The notes under the pieces: model-generated
The model's database searches: none
Told to the model about the DNA's origin: nothing
The model's input: the letters and a program-made list of their open reading frames with translations, nothing else
Shown here: piece by piece, positions 9,815 through 49,488 of the stretch
Layout: each line of letters opens with the position of its first letter
Numbering within the stretch: position 1 is the stretch's first letter
Source of the DNA: Patescibacteria group bacterium
GTDB lineage: Bacteria > Patescibacteriota > Patescibacteriia > Patescibacteriales > GWC2-42-12
Assembly: GCA_028703305.1 (NCBI GenBank)
Contig: JAQVNC010000001.1
Span: forward strand, 1 to 54,790
Length of the DNA: 54,790 nucleotides
Reading direction: 5' to 3'
Position numbers and translations under genes: made by a program

Positions 9815-9834
9815 GTATTATTTATCAGCTGCCT

Positions 9835-15382: not shown

Positions 15383-15466
15383 ATATAAATTATTTACTCT
15401 GTTAAATTGAACTATTATTTAGCAAAGTAATTTTACTATAACAAATTTTGAAAATTAATCAACCTG

Positions 15467-15538
15467 TGCTCCCGGGGGGAATCGAACCCTCATCGCGGCC
15501 TTAGAAGGGCCTTGTTCTATCCATTGAACTACGGGAGC
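15467..15538 (-). tRNA. tRNA-Arg (TCT)
   Basis: Acceptor GCTCCCG/CGGGAGC; anticodon loop CTTCTAA; T-arm GAGGGTTCGATTCCCC. Confidence 0.85.
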
Positions 15539-15613
15539 TTAAAATAAAAATTGCCAACTTTGGGCAATAACCCAATCTTAACGGCAAAAACGCAAATTGT
15601 CAAAGTAAGCCCC

Positions 15614-15695
15614 CGTAACTCACAGCTCAAAACTCGTAGCTCAAAATTCAATGACCAGAGTTGTGAGTTGTGAGTTACGAGCTATGAGCTACGAG
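15614..15695. repeat. heptamer-periodic word arrays in inverted orientation
   Basis: Right array TGTGAGT TGTGAGT TACGAGC TATGAGC TACGAG; 11-mers CGTAACTCACA (15614) and CTCGTAGCTCA (15633) recur as reverse complements at 15669 and 15685 in interleaved order. Confidence 0.8.
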
Positions 15696-23677: not shown

Positions 23678-25166
<1,489 letters not shown>

Positions 25167-25232
25167 CTAGGGAGATTTTTCGGTGAATAATCGAAAGAGT
25201 CGACCTTTATTCGCAAGAATAAGGGAAAAGAG

Positions 25233-25254
25233 TTAGCGCCTGTTAGTACTGAAA
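25233..25254 (+). other. 16S processing-stem 3' arm
   Basis: TTAGCGCCTGTTAGTACTGAAA, complementary to 23541-23562. Confidence 0.75.
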
Positions 25255-25371
25255 TATAAAGAAAATAAACAAATAGTTTTATGGGTCTATTTGTCCCCCT
25301 CCGCTAAAGCTATGGAGGATAAATCATAAAAAGACTGGTCCTAAACTATTTGGTATCAGTCTTTTTATTTA

Positions 25372-25445
25372 GGGCATGTAGCTCAGCTGGTTAGAGCGCC
25401 ACACTGATAATGTGGAGGTCCCAGGTTCGATTCCCGGCATGCCCA
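25372..25445 (+). tRNA. tRNA-Ile (GAT)
   Basis: Acceptor GGGCATG/CATGCCC; anticodon loop CTGATAA. Confidence 0.9.
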
Positions 25446-25507
25446 CCCTCCTATGCTCTTCCACTTCGTTTCAGAGCTTCGGAGGACAAGCCATTATAGG
25501 ATTGTCT

Positions 25508-25744
25508 ATGTATTATGTTTATATTTTATTTTGCTCGGACAGAACTTATTATATAGGGTTAACTGAGAATATTAAAAAAAGAATAGTACAACATAAAAAC
25601 AGTTTAGTTGGTTATACAAAATACAGATTGCCAGTTAAGGTTGTTTGGATAGGAATATTCAAAAATAAAAAAATTGCGGCTAGTTTTGAACAATACTTAA
25701 AAACCGGATCTGGCAATGCATTCTTTAAAAAAAGATTAGTTTAA
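25508..25744 (+). CDS. small GIY-YIG nuclease-family protein
   Basis: 78 aa from ATG 25508: MYYVYILFCSDRTYYIGLTENIKKRIVQH; the track ORF start at 25412 runs through tRNA-Ile. Confidence 0.8.
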   Translation: MYYVYILFCSDRTYYIGLTENIKKRIVQHKNSLVGYTKYRLPVKVVWIGIFKNKKIAASFEQYLKTGSGNAFFKKRLV

Positions 25745-25781
25745 TTCGCTAAGCTTGCGATACGAAGCTTTAGCGTAGTAT

Positions 25782-25857
25782 CGCGGGGTAGAGCAGTTGG
25801 CAGCTCGCCAGGCCCATAACCTGGAGGTCGCCGGTTCAAATCCGGCCCCCGCAACCA
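25782..25857 (+). tRNA. tRNA-Met (CAT), initiator type
   Basis: 5' CGCGGGG with C1xA72 mismatch; anticodon loop CCCATAA; CCA encoded. Confidence 0.85.
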
Positions 25858-25950
25858 TCCTTCACTCCTCCGTTTCACTTCGGAGTTACGGATGGCAAGC
25901 CGTTATATTTTAGGGCTTGCCCTCCATAGCTCCGCAAGGAGCGACGGAGA

Positions 25951-26025
25951 GCCGGGGTAGCTCAGTGGTAGAGCAAATGACTGAAAATCATTGTGTCGTG
26001 AGTCCGATTCTCACCCCCGGCACCA
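25951..26025 (+). tRNA. tRNA-Phe (GAA)
   Basis: Acceptor GCCGGGG/CCCCGGC; anticodon loop CTGAAAA; CCA encoded; unusual T-loop TCCGATT. Confidence 0.8.
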
Positions 26026-26039
26026 TTATCAATTGAACT

Positions 26040-26110
26040 CGGGCTGTCGTATACCGGTAGTACGCATGCTTTGGGAGCATGTTGACTGGGTTCAATTCCC
26101 AGCAGCCCGA
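26040..26110 (+). tRNA. tRNA-Pro (TGG)
   Basis: Acceptor CGGGCTG/CAGCCCG; anticodon loop TTTGGGA; T-arm CTGGGTTCAATTCCCAG. Confidence 0.85.
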
Positions 26111-26202
26111 CAAAATTTCGTGAGGCCTTTATGGCCTTAGAAATTTTTGTTTGGTTGATGGGCGGCAGCGAATCCAGCGTGTCGGAGTGGGGCTTCCGCC
26201 CC

Positions 26203-26222
26203 TTCAATTCCCAGCAGCCCGA
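26203..26222 (+). repeat. exact 20-nt copy of the tRNA-Pro 3' end
   Basis: TTCAATTCCCAGCAGCCCGA is identical to 26091-26110; no matching 5' acceptor strand upstream. Confidence 0.9.
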
Positions 26223-26363
26223 CCCTACTTCGCCAAGGCTTCGTAGGACAAGCCGCCATAATTAGCGGGCTTGCCCGCCGTAGCTTTTGCGACAGCAAAA
26301 GCGTATTTCTAATTTGCGACATTTAGCGGGCTTGCCCGCCGAAGCTCGCAAAAGCGAGCGTAG

Positions 26364-26435
26364 GCGGGTATCGTATAGTGGCTTTTATGCTAGCCTTCCA
26401 AGCTGGAGAGAGGGGTTCGATTCCCCTTACCCGCT
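26364..26435 (+). tRNA. tRNA-Gly (TCC)
   Basis: Acceptor GCGGGTA/TACCCGC; anticodon loop CTTCCAA; T-arm AGGGGTTCGATTCCCCT. Confidence 0.9.
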
Positions 26436-26439
26436 CATA

Positions 26440-27446: not shown

Positions 27447-28142
27447 ATGACTTTCCATATCATCACCATCTTCCCTAAAATTTTTGACTCTTATTTTAAC
27501 GAGAGCATTCTTAAGCGCGCGCGAACCAATAAATTAATAGACATAAAAATCCATAACCTGCGCGACTGGACAACCGATAGGCATAAAACCGTGGACGATA
27601 CCCCGTTCGGCGGCGGCGCCGGCATGGTCATGAAAATTGAGCCGCTTTATAAAGCCCTTCAAAGTATACCCCTCTTTAACAAGGGGGGTAAGGGGAATTT
27701 AAAAACAAAAACCATTCTACTTTCCGCCAAAGGCAAAACCTGGAATCAGAAATTAGCCAAATCACATTCTAAATTAAACGACATCATTTTAATCTGCGGC
27801 CGCTACGAAGGCGTGGATGAAAGAATTACAAAATTTATTGATGAAGAAATTTCCATCGGCGATTATGTTTTAACCGGCGGAGAAATCGGCGCTATGGCGA
27901 TTATTGATTCCATCACTCGCCTACTGCCAGGCGCTTTGGGCAACGCGGACAGCGCCAAAAACGAGTCTCATTCTGTCCCCGGGGTTTTGGAACACCCTCA
28001 ATATACGAGGCCAGAAATATTTACAGCTTCCGGCAAATCATATCGCGTACCCAAAGTATTAATATCCGGTAATCATAAAAAAATCGCCGATTGGCGCGCC
28101 AAAAAATCTAAACATATCCGCCCGTCGTCATCCCGGGCTTGA
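27447..28142 (+). CDS. trmD: tRNA (guanine37-N1)-methyltransferase TrmD
   Basis: 231 aa; TrmD motifs ([34 protein letters not shown]); the last codons lie inside a REP-like hairpin. Confidence 0.9.
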
Positions 28143-28200
28143 CCAGGGATCCAATTCCTTCCCCTTTGTCATTGCGGGCCACGACCCGCAATCCATTTCC
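28127..28200. repeat. two tandem REP-like hairpins, GTCAT-stem-loop-stem-ATCCA type
   Basis: GTCATCCCGGGCTTGACCAGGGATCCAATTCC (28127-28158) and GTCATTGCGGGCCACGACCCGCAATCCATTTCC (28168-28200); a third copy at 36468-36500. Confidence 0.8.
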
Positions 28201-28248
28201 TTAATTTTATTTAATTTTAGCCATAAAAAAGCCAATCAATATAAACGA

Positions 28249-28280
28249 TTGACTTTTTTTTGATTTTATGCTATTATAAT
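28249..28280 (+). promoter_or_regulatory. promoter candidate for cassette 1
   Basis: TTGACT (28249-28254), 17-nt spacer, TATTAT (28272-28277) overlapping TATAAT (28275-28280). Confidence 0.5.
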
Positions 28281-28465
28281 AAGTTAGTTCTTTTGGTATT
28301 TCTTATGCCAAATAGAATGAAAATCGAGCCTTTTTACTTCCCTCTTGACCTGTTTATTTTTAGACATGCCAAGGGTGAGGTAAAAAGGTTCGATTGTCGA
28401 ACCTTCACAACTCAAACAAATAAAATAAAAATAAATATAAAAAAAAGAAAGAGAGGGCAGAGGAA

Positions 28466-29338
28466 ATGAGTATCCAAAAGGTTCATGCGCCGAAAACTCT
28501 AAGAGTCAAATCTGGAGAAAAAAAACAAATAGGCGCAAAGGCAGTAGGAGCAACAAATAAGGAAGAAAAGGAGTTGCTCTATACAGTAATAGGAAAAGGC
28601 GAGGTAGATCCCAAAGGAGTTTTTACGGCTCCGAGCTTAACTAGCGAAGAGGAAACAATAATTATAACAGAATCAGCATTCGATGATTCTATGACAGCGG
28701 AGACCGTCATTACCATTGAGGCTATTAAACCCTTAGCAGTTAAGCCAGCTTACGGCCTAGAACTATTTGCCGGCGCGAACAAGAAGTTTGAAGCGGATTA
28801 CCCGTTTCCTGTTTCCCCGAGCTGGCATATTGGAAATTTAGCCAGGGGTATAGGCAACATTGACGTGAGCACGGGGCTTTATACTGCCCCGGAGATTATC
28901 CCGCACGAAGTCGAAATAACCATTGTTTTAATCGATAAAAATCGGCCAAACAACTTTGCTGAAGCGAAAATCAGATTGTTTCCAATTGAGATGAAAGTCG
29001 GAACGCAGAGGAAGATTCACGCAGGAGAAGAAAATGTTCAACTCCCAATCGAATCACATAACGACTCAAGCGGATTAGATAATTTCACCTGCACAATCAT
29101 TTCCTCTCCAATGGTTGGGAGAATTATAGAGGACAATAAGTACGCCCCGCCATTAATCATTGACAGCCCTGAAATGGTAAAGGTAAAAGCAACATCAAAA
29201 TTGGATAAATCAAAGTCGGTCATTTTGGAATTTGAACTTGATCTACCTCTTTGTAGAGCTTGTAAAAGCATAACCAACTCAGACGGCCGCTGCACTATCT
29301 GCGGCATGCCGAGATCTTATGGTGCAAGCATTAAATAG
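28466..29338 (+). CDS. hypothetical protein: three Ig-like repeats plus C-terminal CxxC...CxxC zinc ribbon, no signal peptide
   Basis: SD GAGGGCAGAGG; repeats of about 85 aa ending GVFTAP / GLYTAP / KYAPP; CRACKSITNSDGRCTICG. Confidence 0.7.
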   Translation: MSIQKVHAPKTLRVKSGEKKQIGAKAVGATNKEEKELLYTVIGKGEVDPKGVFTAPSLTSEEETIIITESAFDDSMTAETVITIEAIKPLAVKPAYGLELFAGANKKFEADYPFPVSPSWHIGNLARGIGNIDVSTGLYTAPEIIPHEVEITIVLIDKNRPNNFAEAKIRLFPIEMKVGTQRKIHAGEENVQLPIESHNDSSGLDNFTCTIISSPMVGRIIEDNKYAPPLIIDSPEMVKVKATSKLDKSKSVILEFELDLPLCRACKSITNSDGRCTICGMPRSYGASIK

Positions 29339-29353
29339 AAAAGGAGAAATAAA

Positions 29354-30112
29354 ATGAGCTTCGAAAAAATAGGGAAAGTAATTGGTACCATCGTGGAGGT
29401 TCTTGAAATATTGGCTACCGGAAAACTTACTGGCGCTATCATGAGGCTTTTTCACGCGAAAGATATCAACAATAAGGCGGGTTCTTCAGTGGCCACGGCA
29501 ACCGGGGATCAAGCGAATGTTAAAACCGATGACGGAAAGATTAAATCTGGTGTTATCGGTTGGGGGCCGGAAGACAATATTATCAGAGAATCGATTATAA
29601 ACCTTTTGGCTACCAAAGATCAAATCAGGGAAACTACCTATCGAAACTTTGAGACCTGGCTGGAAAAAGAACATTTTTTTGACTGGGTATCTTGGATACA
29701 TTTTTTTACTATCCAGGCCGAAAAACTTCCAGACCAAGCGGTAATAACTCTTAACAACATAATTGACGCTATTACTCTTGGCGGCGGCAACGATGCTGGC
29801 CTGAAGTACATCCAAGGCTTGACCGGAGAAATTTATCTTAAGCTGTTAAAGGCTTACGGAAAAAAATTCTTCGAGATGATGGAGGCGCTAGCAAAAAAAT
29901 ATCCATGGCTTTCAGTAAATGAGTTAACAAAACTATTAAACGAGGGTGTGGGCAAAATTGAAGAAAGCCTTGATCATGGGGAAGCTTGGGTTAACATGCA
30001 ACAGCAAGGCAATTTCTGGCAGCGTCATTTCTGCCCTTGGCGATTACTGCAAATGCCACCGGATGTATCCAGCTACAATCAAAATTACCACAACAATGGA
30101 GGTGGAATATGA
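29354..30112 (+). CDS. hypothetical protein (mostly helical by eye)
   Basis: SD AAGGAG at 29341-29346; stop overlaps the next start (ATGA at 30109-30112). Confidence 0.65.
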   Translation: MSFEKIGKVIGTIVEVLEILATGKLTGAIMRLFHAKDINNKAGSSVATATGDQANVKTDDGKIKSGVIGWGPEDNIIRESIINLLATKDQIRETTYRNFETWLEKEHFFDWVSWIHFFTIQAEKLPDQAVITLNNIIDAITLGGGNDAGLKYIQGLTGEIYLKLLKAYGKKFFEMMEALAKKYPWLSVNELTKLLNEGVGKIEESLDHGEAWVNMQQQGNFWQRHFCPWRLLQMPPDVSSYNQNYHNNGGGI

Positions 30113-31242
30113 ACAGGCTCATTAACTTGCTAAGAAGAATTTCTTCTCTCGCATACAATTCCTATGCAGTAATCCATGCCCAATTTCCTGGATTTGTTGT
30201 GTATGGAGGATTGCTACCAATCTCGTTATCAATAATTTTTGCCTGCGCCGGTTATGATCGAGCAAACCAAATTTGCGCAGTAATTTGGGTATTGGTGGGC
30301 TTCTACATCGGGACCCTCCCGGTTGTAGTCGCGACATCAGCCGCCGCCGGAGCAGTATCTGATCCTAAACACCCAGTGGCCGGGGTTGAAGATAAAGTAG
30401 TAAAAGCCTATAAAGGCATACGAACCTACTTTTTCTATCTCGCCGCCTGGTCCTTAATTATCGGGGTTACTGGGATTTACCGCAACTGGGGAAGTATAAT
30501 AACTGTTCTGGCGATAATTATCGTTACCACTATGATGAAGGTTGCGTGGGGGGTGACTGGCAAAGGACGAGCTAGAAAAATATTTATTAGCGGCTTGTCT
30601 ATAGTTCTGGTCTTCAACTTTATGACCGTAATTTCTCCAGTCTTTTACAACAAGACTCTTGGTTTTGACCCCGTTACCTATTTTCGTCCATCGGTAGTTG
30701 ACGAACAAATTGTAAAGGCTGAAAAAACTGCCAAAGATATCAGGGATGCCTATGTCGGCCAAATGTTGGCTGGAATAAGCAATACGATAGACCCCGGAAC
30801 CGGCCAGCCTGCAAACATTGAGCTGCTTACCGTCCAAAAAGTCCGAGTTGAAATCAACGCACAAAAGATACAGGCCATCAAGGAAGAACAATATCCTCTG
30901 ACAATGAGCGGTTTTAAAAAAGCTGTTCTTTATTCATTCAGAAACCCTAGGGGAGTCGAGGGGGCAGAGGACAACCCACAAATCAGAATCGTCAAACACA
31001 GCGACAAGGCATGGGAGGTTGAATTCTTAACTGACCAAATGACTACTGTACTTCGACGATGGCCAGCCGGAGCAACAATTGTCTTCGCCGGTTACGAAGA
31101 AAAAGAAGTAACCAGAAATAACCCTGCCGGCGGAAATGAACCATTCTATCTACCAGTAGGAGTGCCACTCGGCAGAACGGCTGACACTTCGCTCATTGTA
31201 AAATATAAAGTAGGAGGAAAAATAATATTAAATTTCAGCTAG
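30109..31242 (+). CDS. hypothetical polytopic membrane protein with C-terminal soluble domain
   Basis: Start set to ATG 30109 behind GGAGGTGG; about 5 TM helices, then a soluble region of about 190 aa. Confidence 0.65.
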   Translation: MNRLINLLRRISSLAYNSYAVIHAQFPGFVVYGGLLPISLSIIFACAGYDRANQICAVIWVLVGFYIGTLPVVVATSAAAGAVSDPKHPVAGVEDKVVKAYKGIRTYFFYLAAWSLIIGVTGIYRNWGSIITVLAIIIVTTMMKVAWGVTGKGRARKIFISGLSIVLVFNFMTVISPVFYNKTLGFDPVTYFRPSVVDEQIVKAEKTAKDIRDAYVGQMLAGISNTIDPGTGQPANIELLTVQKVRVEINAQKIQAIKEEQYPLTMSGFKKAVLYSFRNPRGVEGAEDNPQIRIVKHSDKAWEVEFLTDQMTTVLRRWPAGATIVFAGYEEKEVTRNNPAGGNEPFYLPVGVPLGRTADTSLIVKYKVGGKIILNFS

Positions 31243-31261
31243 AAAATAATCTAGCCATAGC

Positions 31262-31299
31262 AGAGGGACAACGCTTAGCGTGCTTCCCTCTTTTTTTTT
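31262..31299 (+). terminator. intrinsic terminator of cassette 1
   Basis: AGAGGGA ... TCCCTCT stem followed by T9. Confidence 0.7.
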
Positions 31300-31353
31300 G
31301 TTTTATGTTATGTTATAATTTATATTAGATTGATATTATTAAACTATTTGATT

Positions 31354-31830
31354 ATGAAATCAAAAATCATTTTCATCTCACTTCTTTTACTAGTATTTTT
31401 TTCAATTCCTCTATCAATGGCTAATGCTGGAACATGCAAAAAGGGTGTTGAAACTGGCGGTCCCTGCCAAACAACAGTTGATTGCACAAATACAAATTAT
31501 GCCGGATATACCTGCGACACAACTAATCCTGCCACCTCCGGCACCGTCTCCCTCCCCAACCCAATTACTATCCCTGACGCAAATAAAGCCAACCCCATAC
31601 CCTACCTCCTCGGAATAGTTATCAACTCCGTTCTCGGCATTGTCGGTTCTTTAGCTTTGGTAATGTTCATCTACGGAGGAATTACATGGATGCTGTCGGC
31701 CGGCAATCAGGAGCAGGTGACTAAAGGCAAAAACATTTTAATCTGGGCGGCTGCCGGCATTGTTATTATTTTTACGGCCTACGCTCTAGTCAAATTTGTC
31801 TTAACCACGGTAACGGGAACCGGCGGATAA
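31354..31830 (+). CDS. TrbC/VirB2-like (T4SS-type) pilin paralogue with Cys-rich ectodomain
   Basis: Signal peptide ...SMANA; four Cys in CKKGVETGGPCQTTVDCTNTNYAGYTCD; core IYGGITWMLSAGNQEQVTKGKNIL between two TM helices. Confidence 0.7.
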   Translation: MKSKIIFISLLLLVFFSIPLSMANAGTCKKGVETGGPCQTTVDCTNTNYAGYTCDTTNPATSGTVSLPNPITIPDANKANPIPYLLGIVINSVLGIVGSLALVMFIYGGITWMLSAGNQEQVTKGKNILIWAAAGIVIIFTAYALVKFVLTTVTGTGG

Positions 31831-31958: not shown

Positions 31959-32306
31959 CTATTTTTCTACTTTTTTAATTATAGCCGATAAAATATTTCT
32001 TAACTCTTTAGCTTCGTTCAATAAATCATTCATCCTGCTTTTAAATTCGGGGTTCGCTTCAGCGATTAGTTCCAGCCAATGTATGGCCTCTTTAGATTCT
32101 TTTCTTGATATTTTTAGCCTGTGCACAAAATCCTTTTTCCCTAAAGAATCGTTGGCTTCGCGGTAATTAGCTCCTACTGAACCAGCCGACCCAACAACTT
32201 GGCCGATTAATCTATTATTCATAGAATTTTTTGGCAAAGCCTTGCATAATCTAATTACCCTTTTGGCAAATTCCGTTGTTCTATCTTCTAGATCAAATTT
32301 TTGCAT
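31959..32306 (-). CDS. four-helix-bundle protein (23S rRNA intervening-sequence protein family)
   Basis: 115 aa; typical QVVGSAGSVGANYREA and KESKEAIHWLEL motifs. Confidence 0.8.
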   Translation of the reverse strand: MQKFDLEDRTTEFAKRVIRLCKALPKNSMNNRLIGQVVGSAGSVGANYREANDSLGKKDFVHRLKISRKESKEAIHWLELIAEANPEFKSRMNDLLNEAKELRNILSAIIKKVEK

Positions 32307-40564: not shown

Positions 40565-41020
40565 TTAAGCGGTTTGTTTTTTATTAATATTTAGCAACAA
40601 CAGAATTACGCCAACCGTTATCGCGACATCAGCCAAGTTAAACACCGTAAAATACTTTAAATCCAAATAATCAATCACATAGCCATATCGCAGCCTGTCA
40701 AACAGATTGCTGGATGCTCCTAAAATTACGGCCAATAAACCGCTCGCCTGCGCCCTTTCTCCATAACGCCATTTCTTAACCATAAAAAATATTAAGCAGG
40801 CGATAATTAACGCGATAGTTAGATTCAACCAATAGCCGTAAAAGGGCAGAGAAAAAGCGATATAATAGTTGGCTTTATAACTAAATTTTAAAATCTCGCC
40901 CAACAAATTAACTTCGTTAACTTGGTTCGTAAAGGCAAAAACTTTTAAAAACCGATCCAGGCCAATAAAAAAAATGGCAGCCGAATAAATTGCTGTCATT
41001 TTTTTTATATATAAAGACAT
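40565..41020 (-). CDS. lspA: lipoprotein signal peptidase II
   Basis: NLFDRLRYGYVIDYLD and FNLADVAI motifs; start set to ATG 41020 to avoid overlap with the upstream gene (40999 also possible). Confidence 0.8.
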   Translation of the reverse strand: MSLYIKKMTAIYSAAIFFIGLDRFLKVFAFTNQVNEVNLLGEILKFSYKANYYIAFSLPFYGYWLNLTIALIIACLIFFMVKKWRYGERAQASGLLAVILGASSNLFDRLRYGYVIDYLDLKYFTVFNLADVAITVGVILLLLNINKKQTA

Positions 41021-41024
41021 ATTG

Positions 41025-41396
41025 TTAAGCCATCTTTTGCAGCTTGGTTTTGCAGGCAATGCAAGTATTGGCTACCGGCCTGGCCATCAGCCTTTTTTCG
41101 CCGATTTCCTTTTTGCAATATTTGCAAATGCCATAAGTTCCTTTGGTAATGCGCGCCAAAGCATTATCAATATCGCGCAAAGCGCTCTCCAAGACTTTTT
41201 CCGTGGCCAGATTAGTGGTATACTCATCAATCTCCTGCACACTCTCGTCGCTTTTGTCGCCATAGTCGGGAAATTTAGTGTGGTGCTCGTCTTTGGTATG
41301 TTCGTCTTTTTTAGTAAAACTTTTTAGATCTTCGCTTAATTGCTTTTTACTGGCCAATAGATCTTTTTTAATTTTTTCTATGACTTTTTTATCCAT
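41025..41396 (-). CDS. DksA/TraR-family C4 zinc-finger protein
   Basis: CKYCKKEIGEKRLMARPVANTCIACK four-Cys finger at the C-terminus. Confidence 0.8.
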   Translation of the reverse strand: MDKKVIEKIKKDLLASKKQLSEDLKSFTKKDEHTKDEHHTKFPDYGDKSDESVQEIDEYTTNLATEKVLESALRDIDNALARITKGTYGICKYCKKEIGEKRLMARPVANTCIACKTKLQKMA

Positions 41397-42160: not shown

Positions 42161-42183
42161 TTAACTTATTCTCTAATAAAATG

Positions 42184-42254
42184 AGGTCATGGAGGGAATC
42201 GAACCCTCGATAACAGTTTTGCAGACTGTCGCCTTACCACTTGGCTACATGACC
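42184..42254 (-). tRNA. tRNA-Cys (GCA)
   Basis: Acceptor GGTCATG/CATGACC; anticodon loop CTGCAAA; T-arm GAGGGTTCGATTCCCTC. Confidence 0.9.
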
Positions 42255-42493
42255 TTATACTTTCTTTTAATTATCTCTTTTTGTTGATGTGATTTTAAAA
42301 ATCTTTCTTGCTTTACAGCTTCGCCTCTAGTATTAAACTGCTTAGATTCCAACAAATCCCATGGTTTATAGCCCTTAGTAGATTTAACCTTACCAGTATT
42401 ATGTCGATTTAATCTTATCAAAACATTTTCACAGCTGCCAATATAAATATCATTATTTTTTTGACTTTTTAAAATATATGTAAAATAAGGCAT
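42245..42493 (-). CDS. small GIY-YIG nuclease-family protein
   Basis: 82 aa: MPYFTYILKSQKNNDIYIGSCENVLIRLNRHN; the last two codons and the TAG stop lie in the first 10 nt of tRNA-Cys. Confidence 0.8.
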   Translation of the reverse strand: MPYFTYILKSQKNNDIYIGSCENVLIRLNRHNTGKVKSTKGYKPWDLLESKQFNTRGEAVKQERFLKSHQQKEIIKRKYKVM

Positions 42494-42601: not shown

Positions 42602-43162
42602 TTATTCTAAAACCTCTATTTTAGCCGTTTTTACGCCAAATTTAATTGCGTCAGGCCTTTCCAGCATCCAAACATCAACCCGATTAGAAAATCGCTTATT
42701 CATTCTGTCTCTAACAACAAATACTCTGTCGCCGAATAACCCCGGTATTTTAACTTTAGAGCCAAAAGGCAAAAAATTGGCCGCGATTGTATCTTCCACC
42801 CCATTTTCGCAAACATTAAAGCCATTAGCGGTAATACATGGGGAATTATCAGTTTGACCAGCCTCTGAATTATAAGCGGTGATAAGCACATGCTTGGAAA
42901 AATCCACATCAGCGCCTTCGCTTTCCGGTAATTTACCATTAAATTCCATAATATTAGCAACCACATCTTGGTTAACTTCATCTTGGCTGGAAATGATGCC
43001 TTGATCTTGGCTAAAATCAGTATTTTCTTCCATTTGGCTAGCCATTACCGGCGCTGGAAACAATAAAAACTCAAAAAAGAAAATAAATACCAAAAAAATT
43101 ACCACTTTTTTGGCTTGTTTTAGCGTAATTATTTTATTATGGTTCTTTTTTAACGCATCCAT
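42602..43162 (-). CDS. 3D (RlpA/MltA-like) domain protein, membrane-anchored
   Basis: 186 aa; TM anchor; C-terminal ITAYNSEAGQTDNSPCITANG ... VRDRMNKRFSNRVDVWM. Confidence 0.7.
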   Translation of the reverse strand: MDALKKNHNKIITLKQAKKVVIFLVFIFFFEFLLFPAPVMASQMEENTDFSQDQGIISSQDEVNQDVVANIMEFNGKLPESEGADVDFSKHVLITAYNSEAGQTDNSPCITANGFNVCENGVEDTIAANFLPFGSKVKIPGLFGDRVFVVRDRMNKRFSNRVDVWMLERPDAIKFGVKTAKIEVLE

Positions 43163-43407
43163 GTAAATTTTTTAGCTAATTTTATATACAAAAATCCCTA
43201 TCCTTTCCTCCGAGGAAAATTTAGATAGGGATTTTCTTGTCTTGTACTATAATGGTATCACAGATAACATCTTAAGTCAACCTAATTAACGCCAATCAAA
43301 CCTTGACTTTTAATAAATTTACTGGCATGATAAAATATTCTGAATGGACCTTAAAAAACTAAATTAAACAATAAACTTTAAACTTTAGAGAGAAAGAGGA
43401 GGATAAT

Positions 43408-43602
43408 ATGATAGACAGATATATCGGAATCGCTGTTGTGGCTGTATTAACTGGAGTGGTGTGTTATTTAATCGCTAAAAAAAGCGGCAGGAACGCTACA
43501 TTATGGTTTATGGCCGGAATTGTCTTTAATTTCCTTGCCATCGGCTTACTTCTACTGCTTAAAAACTTTAAACTGACAAAAAAAGCGCGAGGTGACTTAT
43601 GA
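43408..43602 (+). CDS. small two-TM membrane protein
   Basis: 64 aa; SD AGGAGG at 43397-43402; stop overlaps the next start (ATGA at 43599-43602). Confidence 0.6.
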   Translation: MIDRYIGIAVVAVLTGVVCYLIAKKSGRNATLWFMAGIVFNFLAIGLLLLLKNFKLTKKARGDL

Positions 43603-45278
43603 AGCTCAAATTATTGGTGAAAGGGTTGGTAATTCTGTTGGCCTGTGCTGCCTTATCTGTGTTACTTTGGGTATTTTCCCAACTACTCGGAATTTACTGG
43701 GTTTACGGGGTATTTCTCGGCGTGGCTATCTCGGCTTTTGGTCTGGACATTGTTTTTTCCAGAATGATAGCGGCCTTGCTTACCATCTTAACTTTGCTGA
43801 GCCTACCTTGGATTATTTCCTTTTTGTTATTAGGGAAAAGGAAGGCTTTGGTGCTGACCGTAGGCGTGATGTTGATTATTGGTGGAACCTTCGCCGTCTA
43901 CTACGGTTCTGCTGATGTATTCTTTGACCGCGAAACCGGTAAATCAGTTAAGTACTACATTAAAACCATGGACGGTTTTAGATTTTCCAACTCAGCTGAT
44001 TATGACCCAAGATTTGGCATAAAATACAAGGCCATCACGCCCGAGGTGGTCAAAGAATTCTACTTCTGGGAGAAAACCGGCAAAATGCAAAATATGCCGA
44101 ACGTAACCAGAGGAAAATATTTTGATCAAGTCACGGGCGAACCGATTGTCTGGTACGCGGAGAGACCAGATGGAACGCGGGAATTATTTCCTTTACCCGG
44201 CCACGATCCTTTAACCGGCAAAAACTTAAAATCTATGACCGCCGAAATAGCGGAAGCTATGGTCAAGGCCGAAAAAGAGCAAGAAGCAAAACGGGAAGAA
44301 GAAAAAAAAGCACAAATAGAGGCGCAACTTAAAGAAAAGGAAAGAGAACAGGCTCTGTCGGAAAAACAGAAAATTGAAGAAGAAAAAAAGTTAAGAAAAG
44401 AAAAAATACGAGAAGAAAAAGTATTGAGGGAAGAGCAAAAACCAAAAGAAAATCCTGCAGAAGCTCAAAGGAAAGAACAAAAACACTTGGCAGAAATTAA
44501 AGCCTTGAAGCAAAAAATTGAGGAAAAAGAAGCCGAGGCCAATGCCCTAAAAGTAGAAAAATTAAGAAGAGAACAAAAAAACAGAGACGCAGAGGCCAAA
44601 GCACACTCTCTACCAAAAAGGCAGATAATCAAATTTGATATGGACAGCTACTCTAAAGCGAACTTTTTTAGTGAACCGCTTTATGTCCATATTACTGTCT
44701 CTATGGGCACATCTGCAAAAAATTCACGGAAGACAAAACAAACAAACTATGGGCCAGTAGGAGGGTCCACTAATAGCGGCGGAGGATATAATGAGACCTT
44801 AAAAAATAGCAACTTTCGAACCGTCTTGACTTTTTATGTGAGAAAACTTTACACAGTTTCTAACCTTACTATAGCTGTTATAGGGGCCGAAAACTATGCA
44901 GGCTTATCTCAAACAATCAAATTTCATTCAGTCAAACTGGCGGATGAGTTAGGACGAGAGCATGAAGCCGTTTGTATATATAACATATCAACCGGCGAAT
45001 ACAACGATAATACACTGTCTTTTGGTATGGGGGAGGAAAAAATGATTGCTTTGATATTCCCTCAATCCAAACTAAGAAAATTGTTTTTCAAAATTAACTG
45101 GTGCGACAATTCTATCTTGAACTGCCAGGATGTTTACGGAACGTCGATGCCAGCCTTAACGCCAGGATCTTTCTATTCACCCCAGGAGTTGACACCTGCT
45201 GAATCTAGACCTTCTTTCCTGATTAGGAAGTCGACCATACCAGGAGTCCATAAATCACCGGTTATTAACCTTCCATAA
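43599..45278 (+). CDS. hypothetical membrane protein: 4-5 TM helices, soluble domain, K/E coiled coil, C-terminal domain
   Basis: 559 aa; motifs FFDRETGKSVKYY and YFDQVTGEPIVWY; K/E-rich stretch of about 110 aa. Confidence 0.65.
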   Translation: MKLKLLVKGLVILLACAALSVLLWVFSQLLGIYWVYGVFLGVAISAFGLDIVFSRMIAALLTILTLLSLPWIISFLLLGKRKALVLTVGVMLIIGGTFAVYYGSADVFFDRETGKSVKYYIKTMDGFRFSNSADYDPRFGIKYKAITPEVVKEFYFWEKTGKMQNMPNVTRGKYFDQVTGEPIVWYAERPDGTRELFPLPGHDPLTGKNLKSMTAEIAEAMVKAEKEQEAKREEEKKAQIEAQLKEKEREQALSEKQKIEEEKKLRKEKIREEKVLREEQKPKENPAEAQRKEQKHLAEIKALKQKIEEKEAEANALKVEKLRREQKNRDAEAKAHSLPKRQIIKFDMDSYSKANFFSEPLYVHITVSMGTSAKNSRKTKQTNYGPVGGSTNSGGGYNETLKNSNFRTVLTFYVRKLYTVSNLTIAVIGAENYAGLSQTIKFHSVKLADELGREHEAVCIYNISTGEYNDNTLSFGMGEEKMIALIFPQSKLRKLFFKINWCDNSILNCQDVYGTSMPALTPGSFYSPQELTPAESRPSFLIRKSTIPGVHKSPVINLP

Positions 45279-45353
45279 AAAAACAATTACATTTTCTGAC
45301 TATTAATCAACTTCGTTTTGTGAAGAAACCATCGTTCCTTAGATTAAATTGCG

Positions 45354-45382
45354 GAGCTGCTCAAAAAAGAGCAGCTTTTTTA
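45354..45382 (+). terminator. intrinsic terminator
   Basis: GAGCTGCTC-AAAAAA-GAGCAGCTT followed by a T-run. Confidence 0.65.
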
Positions 45383-45443
45383 TAAATAATTAATCAATTT
45401 TAGCCATAAAAAACTAATTTATATAACATTATTTCCAATTATC

Positions 45444-45472
45444 TTGACAATTAATAAATTTAATGGTATTAT
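45444..45472 (+). promoter_or_regulatory. promoter candidate for the lipoprotein gene
   Basis: TTGACA (45444-45449), 17-nt spacer, TATTAT (45467-45472). Confidence 0.5.
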
Positions 45473-45494
45473 ACAAAATCAGCTCCTTAAAAAA

Positions 45495-45559
45495 TTTTTC
45501 AAAATTATCCTAAATAGCGGGTTATAATATAGTCCTTTGCTTAGGATAATTTTGAAAAA
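45495..45559 (+). promoter_or_regulatory. 19-bp perfect-stem hairpin in the 5' leader
   Basis: TTTTTCAAAATTATCCTAA (45495-45513) pairs with TTAGGATAATTTTGAAAAA (45541-45559). Confidence 0.6.
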
Positions 45560-45594
45560 AACAAAAAATAAACCTTTTGAGGGGGTAAAGAACA

Positions 45595-46203
45595 ATGAAA
45601 ATAAGAACTTTCGCAGTTAGTATAATGGTGTTGGCTTTAGCGCTCGCGACCACCGGTTGCGTACGCGCAATCGTAAAGGACGTCAACCCGCGAGTTATAG
45701 GCAGCGATATCGATGCCACCGTTGAAAGGAATAAAGCTAACAAAGAAAAATATACAACTGCAATCAACGCGGAAAGTTTAAAAAGATCCCGAGCCGCAGA
45801 AAGACACCTAGTCGCTTTGGCAGAAATTAAAGGTTTATCAACCAGCGAAACCGGAAAAGGAGGAAAAGTACTTACTGCCGATGGTATTTTGGGCGGATTT
45901 CCAGCAATAATTATCAACGATTCCGCCTGTGCTGTCTCTGGAAAAATAACCCAAATAGGTGGCGATTATGGAGGTACTACCTGGTCTTTTGACGTTAAGG
46001 CCAATGGCGGAATAAAAGAAATGAAACTTGAATCGCGAAATTATGCCATAAAGTGGTCATATCCACCTTCGGCCATAAACCACCCTCTGCCCGGTGAAGG
46101 CGATTCTGTCTTAACTGTCCATGATATCGTTAAATACATTGACGATCGGACAAAAGCACAATATCATGGCGGATACAAAATCAAGGGCAGATCATGCTAT
46201 TAA
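45595..46203 (+). CDS. lipoprotein of unknown function
   Basis: 202 aa; SD GAGGGGG; lipobox LATTGC. Confidence 0.65.
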   Translation: MKIRTFAVSIMVLALALATTGCVRAIVKDVNPRVIGSDIDATVERNKANKEKYTTAINAESLKRSRAAERHLVALAEIKGLSTSETGKGGKVLTADGILGGFPAIIINDSACAVSGKITQIGGDYGGTTWSFDVKANGGIKEMKLESRNYAIKWSYPPSAINHPLPGEGDSVLTVHDIVKYIDDRTKAQYHGGYKIKGRSCY

Positions 46204-46208
46204 CAACA

Positions 46209-46239
46209 TGGGAGAAGATATAATCTTCTCCCATTTTTT
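46209..46239 (+). terminator. intrinsic terminator
   Basis: GGGAGAAGA-TATAA-TCTTCTCCC followed by a T-run. Confidence 0.7.
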
Positions 46240-46308: not shown

Positions 46309-46776
46309 TCAATTTGGTTTTAGTGGGGTTAGATTTTCACCGCTAGTCCCAGTAGCGCCCGTTCCTGCGCCTGCGCTTCCCGGCAGATTGCTAAACACAA
46401 AATAAGTTATGGAATAAGCAAGAATAATAATAACCAGACCGATAACCGCGCGGGTAATTGTATCTTTAGCTTTAGTCACTTTTTCCTCATCCCCTTGCGC
46501 CGTCATCCAAAGAAAACCCGCGTAAATAATTAGCACTAAAAAGATAATACCTAGAAGGCCTAAAAAAGCTTTAATACCTGTAGCCATAATACCTGACAAA
46601 CTATTAGCGCCAGTAGTTACGTCTCCGCTGCCCCATGATGGCCGGCCGGCATTATTCAGTTGAGTTCTTAGGTCAGCATTAACTCCGGCGCTAGCATTTT
46701 GAGCTAAACAAAAATTTATTGCCAATGAAAATAATAATACCGCCAATATAATTTTTTTAAAATATTTCTTTAACAT
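46309..46776 (-). CDS. TrbC/VirB2-like pilin paralogue 1 (last in the array)
   Basis: Signal peptide; core IIYAGFLWMTAQGDEEKVTKAKDTITRAVIGLVII; G/A/T-rich C-tail. Confidence 0.7.
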   Translation of the reverse strand: MLKKYFKKIILAVLLFSLAINFCLAQNASAGVNADLRTQLNNAGRPSWGSGDVTTGANSLSGIMATGIKAFLGLLGIIFLVLIIYAGFLWMTAQGDEEKVTKAKDTITRAVIGLVIIILAYSITYFVFSNLPGSAGAGTGATGTSGENLTPLKPN

Positions 46777-46778
46777 AT

Positions 46779-47183
46779 TTATTTTAAAATTCCGCTGGTT
46801 TTAGTTAAACCATCAATTATCCAATAACTAATGGCATAAGCGCCGATAGTTATAATAAGGCCGATAACCGCCCGGGTTAGCGTATCTTTAGCTTTAGTAA
46901 CTTTTTCCTCTTCGCCTCTTGCCATCATCCAGCCATAGCCGGCATATATAATTAAAATTAAAAAGATAACGCCTAGGATACTTAAAAACGCTTGGATGCC
47001 AATGCCGACAATACCGGCTAAATCGTTTGTTCCGATACTTACCGGCTGATATGGGCTACTCGGGTCTTTACCCATTTTTTCTAAATTTCCATAAGCGTCG
47101 CTCGCGGCTGAAACAATATAAGGCAAGGCTAAAATTGCTATTAAACTAATTAAAATTACAAATTTTTTAAAAAAATTTTTCAT
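46779..47183 (-). CDS. TrbC/VirB2-like pilin paralogue 2
   Basis: Core IIYAGYGWMMARGEEEKVTKAKDTLTRAVIGLII. Confidence 0.7.
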   Translation of the reverse strand: MKNFFKKFVILISLIAILALPYIVSAASDAYGNLEKMGKDPSSPYQPVSIGTNDLAGIVGIGIQAFLSILGVIFLILIIYAGYGWMMARGEEEKVTKAKDTLTRAVIGLIITIGAYAISYWIIDGLTKTSGILK

Positions 47184-47245
47184 TATTTTAAAATAATTTT
47201 TATATTTATAATTATCTGTTTGTGCTAAATTAACAATATTCTTAA

Positions 47246-47716
47246 TTACTCGCCTTCGCCGCCGCCATCCGGGTACTGTGTCGCTGCCGGCGTTGTCCCA
47301 GCGCCCGTTGTATTTGCGCTACCACCGCCATTTAAAGTTCCGGCCGCTAACTTATCCATAACAAAAATACTAATGGCATAGGCCGCTACCACGATTATTA
47401 TACCGACAATCGCTCGTGTTATTGTTTCTTTAGCTTTAGTAACTTTTTCTTCTTCGCCCCTGGCCATCATCCAGTTATAACCCGCGTAGACCATTAAGAT
47501 TAAAAAAACCACGCCTAATATAGATAGGGCTCCGCTTATTACTGTGTTTATAATTGTAAAAAGTTTATCTCCAGAAGCATCTTGATATCCACCCTCTGTC
47601 ATGCTTACGTCTTGCAACTTGCCTAAAGCCGCGTTGTCAGCAGACACTAAATGCGGCAGCATAATAAAAGCAACCAGCCAAACTAACAAAATAATTTTAA
47701 AATATTTTTTAAACAT
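47246..47716 (-). CDS. TrbC/VirB2-like pilin paralogue 3
   Basis: Core MVYAGYNWMMARGEEEKVTKAKETITRAIVGIII; G/T/A-rich C-tail. Confidence 0.7.
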   Translation of the reverse strand: MFKKYFKIILLVWLVAFIMLPHLVSADNAALGKLQDVSMTEGGYQDASGDKLFTIINTVISGALSILGVVFLILMVYAGYNWMMARGEEEKVTKAKETITRAIVGIIIVVAAYAISIFVMDKLAAGTLNGGGSANTTGAGTTPAATQYPDGGGEGE

Positions 47717-47743
47717 CTTTCACTTATTTAAATAATTTAACTT

Positions 47744-48157
47744 TTATTTTAAAGTCGCGTCACCCAAAACCTTAACTACATACCAGCTAATTCCATAAGC
47801 GGCCAGAACCAAAATTAAACCAATAATCGCGTTAGTTAAAGTATTTTTGGCTTTGGTTACCAACTCTTCATTGCCGCGCGCCGTCATCCAAGTATAGCCG
47901 CCATAAATCGCCAGAGCTAAAAATACTACTCCAATAAAGCTTAAAATCGTATTAATAACTAAAGAAATCATCTCGTCCGGCTCGGTAATGCCCGTGTCAT
48001 ACCCGGCCCCCTTGTCTCCGGCCACTTTATCAAGCGGTCCCTCGCCTTTAAAAGCGTCTTCCAAATTAGCGGCCTGGCAAAAATTTAAACTTAAAACTAA
48101 CAGAACAAAAACTATAGCTATCTTTTTTATAATTTTAAAATTTAAGATTTTAACCAT
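47744..48157 (-). CDS. TrbC/VirB2-like pilin paralogue 4
   Basis: Core AIYGGYTWMTARGNEELVTKAKNTLTNAIIGLIL. Confidence 0.7.
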   Translation of the reverse strand: MVKILNFKIIKKIAIVFVLLVLSLNFCQAANLEDAFKGEGPLDKVAGDKGAGYDTGITEPDEMISLVINTILSFIGVVFLALAIYGGYTWMTARGNEELVTKAKNTLTNAIIGLILVLAAYGISWYVVKVLGDATLK

Positions 48158-48525
48158 AAAGTTGCCGCTAACTGCGTTATGGCATAAGCGCCTAAAACCA
48201 CCGCCAAGCCTATAATCGCGTAAATTATAATATTTTTAGCTCTTTCCACTTCCTGCTCATTGCCTCGCGCCATCATCCAAATAAATCCGGCGTATATTAT
48301 TAAACCTAAAAAAACAACCCCGATAAACATAGTGGAAATACTTATAATTGCTCCTATTTTAGAATACAGCATTGTTGCCGAATTGTCTGTTGGGCTATAA
48401 CCCATTCCTGTGGCCGAGCTCTTGAGGCCGCTAAAAAAATCAGCCGAGGCCGGAGTCGTATTAACGTTAAGCAACAAAATACTTAACGCCACCAAGCCAA
48501 TTATTGAAAATGAAAAATTTTTCAT
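48142..48525 (-). CDS. TrbC/VirB2-like pilin paralogue 5
   Basis: Core IIYAGFIWMMARGNEQEVERAKNIIIYAIIGLAV. Confidence 0.7.
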   Translation of the reverse strand: MKNFSFSIIGLVALSILLLNVNTTPASADFFSGLKSSATGMGYSPTDNSATMLYSKIGAIISISTMFIGVVFLGLIIYAGFIWMMARGNEQEVERAKNIIIYAIIGLAVVLGAYAITQLAATLWLKS

Positions 48526-48527
48526 AA

Positions 48528-48923
48528 TTACTGCCCCTTAAGAGTGTTGCCCAAAAAAGAAGTTATGGCATAAGCCATTAAAACTATTGCCAAGCCGATA
48601 ACCGCGGCGATTATAATATCTTTAGCTTTGCCGGCTGTCTGCTCATTGCCCATGGAGAACATCCATATATAACCGCCGTAAATCATTAAAATAAAAAAGA
48701 CTACGCCTAAAAACGATAAGCCCACACCCACGATTTTTCCAATGGTTATTTCTAGATTATCTTTTGTTACGCCGCCATAGACTTTTGCGGTATCATCTAG
48801 ACCAGTCGTTCCGACTGGATTTTTTGGATCATAAGCCGACAACCCCACCTGCGCCATTACTAAAAATGACAAAACGATCATTAGGCTGGAAAGAATAATT
48901 TTATGATATTTTGTTATAGCCAT
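48528..48923 (-). CDS. TrbC/VirB2-like pilin paralogue 6
   Basis: Core MIYGGYIWMFSMGNEQTAGKAKDIIIAAVIGLAI. Confidence 0.7.
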   Translation of the reverse strand: MAITKYHKIILSSLMIVLSFLVMAQVGLSAYDPKNPVGTTGLDDTAKVYGGVTKDNLEITIGKIVGVGLSFLGVVFFILMIYGGYIWMFSMGNEQTAGKAKDIIIAAVIGLAIVLMAYAITSFLGNTLKGQ

Positions 48924-48925
48924 AA

Positions 48926-48968
48926 GAGATTGCCGCGTCGCCCCGAGTACGGGGCTCCTCGCAATGAC
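48926..48968. repeat. REP-like element, GTCATTGCGAGGAGC...GCAATCTC type, reverse orientation
   Basis: Reverse complement reads GTCATTGCGAGGAGCCCCGTACTCGGGGCGACGCGGCAATCTC. Confidence 0.75.
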
Positions 48969-49074
48969 AATAAAGTATTTCCACTGCTCTATTCACTATC
49001 GTTAAATAGCGCGCAGGGCAGTGGCTCCCGCCAAAGCGGGAAACCACCTATTCTTAATACCGGTATTAAGAAAA

Positions 49075-49488
49075 TTAACTTTCCGTAGTAGCCGTAATCA
49101 GCGAATTTAAAACAAAAGTCGCGATGGCAAAAGCCGCTACGATAATTACCAAGCCGATGATGCCGGCGATGATTAATTTTTTAGCTTCGCCAACCTTGTC
49201 TTCATTGCCTCCGGCAGTCATCCATTTAAAGCCGCCCAGCAAAATTATAACCACGGCAATAATGCCCAAGAAACCCAAAATAACGCGGATAACCGAAGCC
49301 GCGATATCGCGCGGATCGCGTTCACCCAAACCGGTGGTAGTCTTAATGTTGTCTTTTAGCGTATCGCTGCCCCAAGGATTTAAAGTATCGCTGGCCGCTA
49401 AAGCCGGCAAAGAAAAAGACAAAACCGGAGTTAAAACAAATAGCGCCATGGCCAGTATCACCGCTTTTTTGAATAATGTTTTTTTCAT
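49075..49488 (-). CDS. TrbC/VirB2-like pilin paralogue 7 (first in the array)
   Basis: SD GGGAGGTG; core ILLGGFKWMTAGGNEDKVGEAKKLIIAGIIGLVI. Confidence 0.7.
   Translation of the reverse strand: MKKTLFKKAVILAMALFVLTPVLSFSLPALAASDTLNPWGSDTLKDNIKTTTGLGERDPRDIAASVIRVILGFLGIIAVVIILLGGFKWMTAGGNEDKVGEAKKLIIAGIIGLVIIVAAFAIATFVLNSLITATTES

Follow-up and report, generated by a model that had tools for sequence, protein, structure and literature searches.

A gene pair linked to VirB2-like pilin genes in a Patescibacteria chromosome: a candidate surface membrane complex

The segment of a Patescibacteria chromosome analysed here (contig JAQVNC010000001.1, 54.8 kb; the whole stretch is called the window) carries a 16S rRNA, ten tRNAs, ribosomal protein genes and, at 52.7–54.7 kb, dnaN/dnaA. 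About 7–9 kb from dnaN/dnaA, two genes on the forward strand overlap at ATGA. The first (43408–43602) encodes s64, a protein of 64 amino acids (aa) with two transmembrane (TM) helices, and the second (43599–45278) encodes a modular protein of 559 aa. The conserved N-terminal half of the 559-aa protein is called the N-domain, and s64 together with the N-domain gene is called the pair. In the Patescibacteria loci compared with the window (among L001–L043), the N-domain gene, usually with s64, keeps a position upstream of VirB2-like pilin genes, often in one predicted operon with a particular pilin orthogroup, and therefore working with these pilins is the most likely function of the pair. We consider that the pair encodes a pilin-associated surface membrane complex, in which s64 and the N-domain protein act together with VirB2-like pilins. 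Leaving the biochemistry aside, we place the probability of this interpretation at about 0.5.

A sequence-only reading had described the region as cassette 2, an acquired envelope module facing a seven-gene pilin array. Unit 1 (the pair) was given a promoter at about 43300–43340 and a terminator at 45354–45382, and unit 2 was described as a 202-aa lipoprotein gene with a hairpin leader, a promoter and a terminator of its own. All the elements named in that reading are present at the locus, and the sequence signals support two transcription units. The array (46309–49488, reverse strand) consists of seven tandem VirB2-like (PF18895) pilin genes, which are convergent with unit 2, and all seven exceed the Pfam T4SS_pilin gathering score. 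The interpretation itself stands in part. The envelope location of all three products, the codon skew, the link to pilins and the insertion are supported. The single module, the facing array as the partner, the import from a foreign lineage and the orphan status of the 559-aa protein are not.

Linkage to one pilin orthogroup

A PF18895 pilin gene lies downstream of the pair, or of the N-domain gene, in 10 of the 11 Patescibacteria lineages with enough flanking sequence (the window, L001/23, L008, L019/29/30, L022, L024–27, L037, L016, L006/28 and L040). No PF18895 gene was found upstream of the pair in any locus with 3.4–10 kb of flank. In L022, L024–27 and L037 the pilin starts 56–68 nt 3' of the N-domain gene on the same strand, and elsewhere the distance is up to about 3 kb, with one to several genes between the N-domain gene and the pilin in L001/23, L008 and L019. 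The pilins are convergent with the pair in the window, L016, L006/28 and L040. The housekeeping neighbours vary among the loci (trmD, EamA, VanW, MazE and DnaJ). Thus, the link between the pair and the pilins has outlasted rearrangements.

Six of the partner pilins belong to one orthogroup, with mutual scores of 96–155 bits versus 41–69 bits to the array pilins. The window member of this orthogroup, the p166-type pilin, is located at 31330–31830, at the end of the gene group called cassette 1. Accordingly, the conserved partner is the p166-type orthogroup of cassette 1 and not the facing seven-gene array, as had been proposed. Cassette 1 (28215–31830, forward strand) comprises an upstream block, a promoter, a long structured leader, three genes (290, 252 and 401 aa) and the p166-type pilin gene. 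L001/L023 is syntenic with the window in the order rpsP–KH–trmD–(s64–N-domain)–three genes–pilin–ROK–GH42–pilins–Polysacc_synt, and the pair heads cassette 1 there and in L008. The L008 protein L008_366 matches the 401-aa protein of the window with an E value of 1e-14, and the pilins are 57–62% identical. On the basis of this gene order, cassettes 1 and 2 appear to be halves of one conserved cluster, which the pair normally heads. Since the pair heads cassette 1 in L001/L023 and L008, it has probably been separated from that cassette in the present genome.

The small subunit is found 5' of the N-domain gene in the window, L001/2/23, L005, L042, L006/28, L008, L015, L019 (twice), L021, L022, L031/32 and L040, and is also present in L033; a few lineages are without it. 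Its identity to the window protein is 75–80% in L001, L005 and L008, and 43% in L006. The 4-nt overlap of the two genes is retained in six loci (L001, L002, L005, L006, L008 and L022). This ATGA overlap should couple translation and tie the synthesis of s64 and the 559-aa protein together. In L019/L029/L030 (4474–8299), two tandem s64–N-domain pairs are present, whose large subunits are 44% identical, with a transglutaminase-core gene between them. These tandem pairs are followed by IS1595 fragments, a 365-aa gene and a p166-type pilin gene.

The 559-aa protein and its family

The first module, residues 1–104 (43599–43910), is a predicted membrane anchor of three TM helices and an interfacial helix. 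The TM helices are located at about 9–31, 56–78 and 84–104, and the helix 32–55 is amphipathic and partly charged. In the AlphaFold2 (AF2) model the corresponding helices are 3–47, 51–77 and 82–104. Three TM helices and one amphipathic helix therefore describe the anchor better than the 4–5 TM helices counted earlier. According to the hydropathy and the K/R distribution of the family, K/R clusters are present at the N-terminus and in the loop 79–83. The N-terminus and this loop should thus be inside, which gives an N-in topology with three TM helices.

Residues 105–215 (43911–44243) form a tandem repeat domain with the motifs FFDRETGK...YY and YFDQVTGEPIVWY, and the predicted local distance difference test (pLDDT) values are 80–92. 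Its two halves align with 30% identity over 53 aa (E 7e-7). The result indicates an internal duplication, as the duplicated [FY]FDxxTGxxxxxY motifs had implied. Residues 216–337 (44244–44609) form a K/E-rich helical stalk, modelled by AF2 as two helices (215–278 and 286–337), in agreement with the K/E coiled coil of about 110 aa recognised before. The stalk is present in the orthologue P0174 and absent in most family members. Residues 338–559 (44610–45278) contain the C-domain of about 220 aa, with a region that is beta-rich in the AF2 model (342–502) and a disordered tail; the pLDDT values are 55–77 for 420–500 and below 50 for 505–559.

The domain order resembles that of TolA/TonB-style stalk proteins, in which an N-terminal membrane anchor is likewise joined through a long K/E-rich helix to a globular domain at the C-terminus. 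The present protein differs in its three-TM anchor and extra repeat domain, and no TolQ/TolR-like match was found among the neighbouring open reading frames (ORFs) scanned. Homology to TolA was considered for residues 220–337 and rejected, as the NCBIfam match is compositional (14 bits against a cut-off of 213).

Conservation among the homologues is limited to residues 1–230. In a profile search of 1.84 billion representatives, the repeat family (FFDxxTGxP..WY / G.DP.TG..L.P.T.E) comprises 1,678 clusters at E<=1e-3 and 924 at E<=1e-10, and many members have 3–7 repeat stretches. For the C-domain, only one homologous cluster was found among 5.8 billion sequences. The nearest named relative of the 559-aa protein comes from a Candidatus Falkowbacteria metagenome-assembled genome (MAG), all four public runs listed with the region are landfill metagenomes, no RNA run was found to contain it, and a scan of GTDB species representatives found only two loci. 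In the 93 family members scanned, no Pfam model covers the repeat core. Accessory domains are scattered among these members (Sel1, TPR, SH3_3, YARHG and PDZ), and such domains often occur outside the cytoplasm. In several family members, the repeats begin immediately after a cleavable signal peptide. According to these homologues and the N-in three-TM topology, the repeat domain, the stalk and the C-terminal head should be located outside the cytoplasm; the comparison thus shows the repeat domain as an exported one.

The three proteins of the two units gave nothing significant in Pfam, NCBIfam, PHROGs and PADLOC, where only sub-threshold TM or K/E-rich compositional matches were obtained. Sequence and profile searches of PDB gave no match to the N-domain family, s64, the lipoprotein or the 401-aa protein of cassette 1. 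Foldseek comparison of the AF2 model of the 559-aa protein with PDB and BFVD gave no usable match (best E 0.16). The earlier statement that no family was recognised is thus correct for curated families, whereas the N-terminal half of the 559-aa protein belongs to a large unnamed family.

From these features, the following arrangement is proposed. The s64 and the 559-aa protein would form a two-subunit membrane complex, with their synthesis tied by the ATGA overlap. The large subunit would be anchored by about three TM helices, and outside the membrane a membrane-proximal repeat domain would lead to a helical stalk of about 120 aa and then to a lineage-specific beta-rich head. Its most likely task would be to act together with the pilins on the cell surface, serving them as an anchor, a docking site or an assembly partner and presenting the variable head.

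Expression signals of unit 1

The promoter region of unit 1 (43302–43338) is copy 1 of a 37-nt direct repeat. It contains the promoter-like site TTGACT-17-CATGAT with TG at 43303–43331, which scores 9/12 in the consensus scan. The leader (43339–43407) carries the Shine–Dalgarno (SD) sequence AGGAGG at 43397–43402. In the alignment of regions 5' of s64, the leader part ...ACCTTAAAA-CTAAAyAAACAATAAA accompanies the pair in other genomes. The leader has no significant fold (z 0.02). The SD sequence and the ATGA coupling of the two ORFs are read directly from the sequence.

The intrinsic terminator of unit 1 folds at 45353–45384, with a 10-bp stem (45353–45378) followed by a U-run (−15.6 kcal/mol, z −4.2). 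This terminator is missing from the list of the consensus scan, perhaps because part of the T-run is taken up by G–U pairs that lengthen the stem. In L001 and L008, a homologous hairpin is found after the N-domain gene.

Relocation of the pair

The locus lies in a frame that is constant across relatives, from p186 on the reverse strand to the pilin array on the reverse strand. In L011 and L017, p186 is followed by the lipoprotein gene and then the pilins, and the pair is absent. In the window, both the pair and the lipoprotein gene occupy this slot. In L005, L042 and L043 the pair is at the same site, followed 4 nt on by a non-homologous 177-aa lipoprotein gene (L042, 3452–3985; L005, 8989–9522) and then by the orthologue of the first array pilin. 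It seems that some lipoprotein, though no particular one, is needed between the pair and the array.

The pair in the window is bracketed by the 37-nt direct repeat, with copy 1 at 43302–43338 and copy 2 at 45443–45479. The copies are 81% identical, and they are the only two matches in the window (0 expected). The single promoter of L017 continues directly into the sequence found after copy 2 in the window. In addition, the 16-nt block TTTTAGCCATAAAAAA follows the terminator of unit 1 at 45398–45413 (forward strand), where it probably came with the pair. It occurs in two exact copies in the window, the second being located 5' of cassette 1 at 28215–28230. The terminator and TTTTAGCCATAAAAAA block 3' of the 559-aa gene are homologous to the block after the N-domain genes in L001 and L008 and to that before cassette 1, and TTTTAGCCATAAAAAA is found on both sides of the pair in L008 (7687–7700 and 9247–9260).

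The absence of the pair in L011 and L017, the flanking promoter repeat, the homology of the terminator–TTTTAGCCATAAAAAA block and the codon skew shared with cassette 1 (see below) argue for a relocation. A segment of about 2.1 kb is thus likely to have moved from the head of cassette 1 into the leader of the lipoprotein gene, with duplication of the promoter. In this process the pair would have been cut from the head of cassette 1 and inserted just downstream of the promoter of the resident lipoprotein gene. The alternative is the opposite polarity, in which the pair was deleted between the repeats in L011 and L017. The presence/absence pattern and the flanking repeat support the earlier proposal that the segment was acquired, in the sense of an insertion and not of foreign import.

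No integrase or transposase gene adjoins the pair, and none is found in the Pfam-annotated neighbours at 40.5–43.2 kb and 46.3–54.7 kb. Insertion sequence (IS) elements beside the pair are found only in L007 and L019. The contigs of L006 and L007 are identical except that L007 has an rve-family transposase gene (9448–10338) inserted directly 3' of the N-domain gene. This edge of the pair seems to be a hot spot for insertions.

The TTTTAGCCATAAAAAA block is located 20–45 nt upstream of the −35 hexamer of the cassette promoters. It could be the site of a shared regulator or a recombination substrate. The leader of cassette 1 (28285–28470) contains a long and very stable hairpin (core 28320–28397, z −6.0), and its sequence is kept in L001 (6500–6600) and L008 (9410–9500). 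Rfam yields only sub-threshold generic hairpin matches for it.

Unit 2: lipoprotein and structured leader

The promoter of unit 2 is located in copy 2 of the 37-nt repeat (45443–45479, forward strand). It has the sequence TTGACA-17-TATTAT with TG at 45444–45472, and this extended −10 promoter, at 11/12, is the best match in a 5-kb scan. The −10 hexamer and the downstream leader are conserved in L011 and L017. The leader (45483–45585) is highly structured, with z values of −4.5 to −5.2 for the whole leader. It contains a perfect hairpin at 45495–45559, in which 45495–45513 and 45541–45559 form 19 consecutive pairs, as noted before. In the predicted fold this hairpin stands within an outer helix that pairs CUCCUUAAAA (45483–45492) with UUUUGAGGGG (45575–45584) and includes the SD sequence (GAGGGGG at 45579–45585). 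An outer helix joining a 5' CUCYUU-type segment to the SD sequence is also found in the minimum-energy folds of L011 and L018. The predicted folds suggest that the leader hides the ribosome-binding site, so that the near-consensus promoter would be combined with translational occlusion.

L009–L014 and L018 have conserved hairpin arms, in which one compensatory double change (CCTAA/TTAGG to CCCAA/TTGGG) and some G–U changes occur. The apical loop carries GC-rich palindromic insertions of 60–130 nt in relatives. An RNA-level role is favoured over a DNA operator because the loop length is tolerated. The hairpin is not indispensable, since L017 is without it. At the gathering level, Rfam reports only the rRNA and tRNAs in the window and nothing credible for either leader. 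A multicopy miniature inverted-repeat transposable element was considered for the leader hairpin and rejected, as the arms occur once in the window. GC-rich palindromes of the types GTCATTGCGAG...CGAAGCAATC and GTCATTCCGGC...GCCGGAATC are scattered between genes (window 28140–28200; L001 4670–4770). Such palindromes are repeatedly inserted at the apex of the lipoprotein-leader hairpin (L011 430–550, L012–L014, L018 45–100), and they look like miniature mobile repeats.

The lipoprotein gene (45595–46203, forward strand) encodes 202 aa, and its product is lineage-restricted, with four homologous clusters. The G21–C22 lipobox is invariant in all homologues, and Cys112 is conserved. The lipobox is the canonical L-x-G-C in the homologues and T-T-G-C in the window. 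The LspA gene (PF01252) is present at 40565–41059. The product of unit 2 is thus most probably a bacterial lipoprotein, as judged from its lipobox. The AF2 model of this protein is unusable (pLDDT 38). A bidirectional terminator at 46208–46234, detected by the consensus scan, is common to unit 2 and the pilin array.

The arrangement of the lipoprotein gene and a convergent pilin array is found in L009 and L010, with 7–8 pilins, and also in L011, L013, L014 and L017, and in L011 and L017 the gene stands between p186 and the pilins. From this distribution, the lipoprotein is probably a resident and stable neighbour of the array, separate from the pair. It was considered as a partner of the pair and rejected, as it is absent from every other pair-bearing locus. 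The two units therefore differ in their histories and do not form the single module proposed earlier.

Codon usage and origin

An atypical codon flavour had been reported for cassette 2, and the composition confirms it. GGA accounts for 22 of 62 Gly codons (35%) versus 93 of 746 (12%) in 39 core genes (p 9e-6), and AGR (AGA or AGG) accounts for 25 of 38 Arg codons (66%) versus 193 of 474 (41%) in the core genes (p 0.003). The codon z values per gene are −2.5 to −3.5 against the same 39 core genes. The GC content is unremarkable (0.414 vs 0.405), and that at third codon positions is typical too. A foreign origin was judged on GC and rejected, as GC is normal. The codon skew is common to cassette 1 and partly to the pilins, and it may mark a gene class rather than a foreign origin. 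Since GC is normal, and the codon skew and the terminator–TTTTAGCCATAAAAAA block are shared with cassette 1, the evidence points to reshuffling within this lineage rather than foreign import.

Alternative explanations

Several observations weigh against a pilin-associated complex. In one Patescibacteria locus with s64, L021, the downstream genes are CAP, sortase and a 504-aa gene, and no pilin lies within 8 kb. The one homologue locus examined from outside the candidate phyla radiation, L003, has neither s64 nor pilins, which implies a broader role for the repeat domain itself. With pilin genes so common in these genomes (the window alone has three clusters), the chance background of the linkage is raised. 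The compared loci are related and are not fully independent observations. Genes for VirB4, VirB6, VirD4, PrgI/VirB3 and TrsD are not found in the window, which ends at dnaA, by the Pfam scans of 48 ORFs. The pair has no significant sequence or structure similarity to any component of a type IV secretion system (T4SS), the match of s64 to PrgI being sub-threshold. Finally, the orthologue in L005 (GCA_043817035.1) has an in-frame TAA at codon 164 (7854–7856), where the window and L042 have CAA (Gln164), and NCBI annotates it as two proteins. The TAA may have arisen by a recent nonsense mutation, or else it is an error in the consensus sequence.

The first alternative is a general role in the maintenance of the envelope or cell wall, in which the exported repeats bind a wall or membrane component and the proximity to pilins would only reflect an accumulation of envelope genes in the variable regions of small genomes. 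Members of the family also occur in genomes that bear no pilins, and some carry the accessory domains described above; L003 and L021 have no nearby pilin. The neighbours of the pair in the Pfam scans include a wall-hydrolase-like protein (p186), LspA and a class A penicillin-binding protein, and the window is dense in pilin genes. This role does not account for the directional and orthogroup-specific pattern, with pilins downstream in 10 of 11 lineages, none upstream and a spacing of 56–68 nt in several, across otherwise unrelated neighbourhoods. We regard it as rather improbable, though it deserves attention.

A more specific proposal than the pilin-associated complex is that the trio of N-domain protein, p166-type pilin and, where present, s64 is a self-contained surface device. 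It would be a platform that inserts, anchors or polymerises the pilin without a VirB4-centred machine, and its swappable head would set the partner or host specificity. We consider this proposal unlikely.

The pair could instead be a true part of a T4SS, with s64 as a diverged VirB3/PrgI-type subunit and the 559-aa protein as a diverged structural component. PrgI (PF12666) is the only Pfam family matched by all five s64 homologues (best E 0.0036). Like VirB3/PrgI, s64 is a small protein with two hydrophobic segments encoded beside VirB2-like pilin genes. The locus is close to dnaN/dnaA, and parts of PMC12102498 describe PrgI/VirB3 and VirB2-like genes as widespread in Patescibacteria. However, the score of s64 is 17.5 bits against a gathering score of 27, among other weak two-TM matches, and its 64 aa compare with a profile of 91 positions. 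VirB4 adjacency is absent, as is any VirB4 in the window. No match was obtained for the model of the 559-aa protein among the structures of the PDB library searched, or for the s64 profile among PDB chain sequences. We thus doubt this assignment strongly. To our knowledge, T4SSs of the Gram-positive type are normally without a pilus.

If the 559-aa protein were a polymorphic effector or toxin, its conserved N-terminal part would serve export or anchoring and its C-domain would act as the payload, and the product of the variable downstream gene, in the window the lipoprotein, would provide immunity or be a partner. As in polymorphic surface and toxin proteins, conservation is seen in the N-terminal half, the C-terminal regions of different lineages bear no relation to one another, and the downstream genes vary (the 202-aa lipoprotein in the window, the 177-aa lipoprotein in L005/L042 and others elsewhere). 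In contrast to those proteins, there is no recognisable toxin domain and no covarying immunity gene, and a polytopic anchor takes the place of a secretion signal domain. No C-terminal region scanned matches a toxin or defence family. Downstream of the same C-domain (about 60% identical), the window and L042 encode lipoproteins that are not homologous to each other. L011 and L017 have the lipoprotein of unit 2 but not the pair, and unit 2 has its own promoter and terminator. This explanation is highly improbable.

A passenger cassette in decay that no longer serves the cell, for which the TAA in the L005 MAG, the presence/absence polymorphism and the IS elements in L007 and L019 might speak, is hardly credible in view of the long intact ORFs, the identities across many lineages (s64 75–80%, N-domain 66–88%), the overlap kept in six loci, and the intact 539-aa orthologue of L042 and L043, which is 71% identical over its full length.

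Neighbouring features

The p186 gene (42602–43162, reverse strand) is the divergent neighbour of unit 1 and forms the left edge of the variable slot; its orthologues border the same slot in L005, L011, L017 and L042. The protein is predicted to be secreted or membrane-anchored. Its C-terminal part weakly resembles cell-wall-binding or cell-wall-hydrolase domains, according to matches to the NCBIfam EntA/EntB C-terminal part (E 4e-5, below the cut-off) and to the PHROG 'L-alanyl-D-glutamate peptidase' (E 1.6e-9). A hairpin at 43190–43236 (AAAATCCCTATCC...GGATAGGGATTTT) is present in the 5' region of p186 and is kept in L005, L011, L017 and L042. Just left of p186, an 82-aa stand-alone GIY-YIG nuclease ORF (42245–42493, reverse strand, GC 0.28) overlaps the 5' end of tRNA-Cys (42183–42254, reverse strand) by about 10 nt.

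Elsewhere in the window, 16S rRNA is followed by tRNA-Ile, Met, Phe, Pro and Gly (23678–26436), and no 23S rRNA was found in the window. A gene for a 23S-rRNA-intervening-sequence protein is located at 31959–32306, between cassette 1 and ROK. A tyrosine recombinase (Phage_integrase) gene at 15466–16614 adjoins tRNA-Arg(tct).

Implications for Patescibacteria

According to passages of PMC12102498, VirB2-like arrays of 2–11 genes are common in Patescibacteria and often lie near dnaA, and a passage of PMC10633639 describes a pilin series as essential for the epibiotic growth of Ca. Southlakia epibionticum. The term-matched passages of these two papers do not mention the s64–N-domain pair or the lipoprotein as components. 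The present locus is similar to the described arrays in its tandem PF18895 genes near dnaA, its adjacent or intervening non-pilin genes with no assigned function, the monoderm-type envelope and a presumed role in cell contact. It differs in that the pair tracks one pilin orthogroup and not arrays generally, and in that VirB4, VirB6 and TrsD are absent from the window.

If the pair acts with its pilins as proposed here, it would belong to the apparatus by which these small, host-dependent bacteria make contact with other cells. A sizeable protein family without a curated model is now defined. A cassette that moves in behind a promoter and duplicates it, as is likely here, helps to explain the mosaic organisation of these loci. 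Few features of Patescibacteria are as conspicuous as the VirB2-like arrays, and few are as poorly understood; in the one species that is genetically tractable, growth on the host requires a pilin series. The directional partnership between one pilin orthogroup and a polytopic exported-repeat protein provides a testable candidate partner, and the pair is thus a concrete candidate co-factor for that orthogroup.

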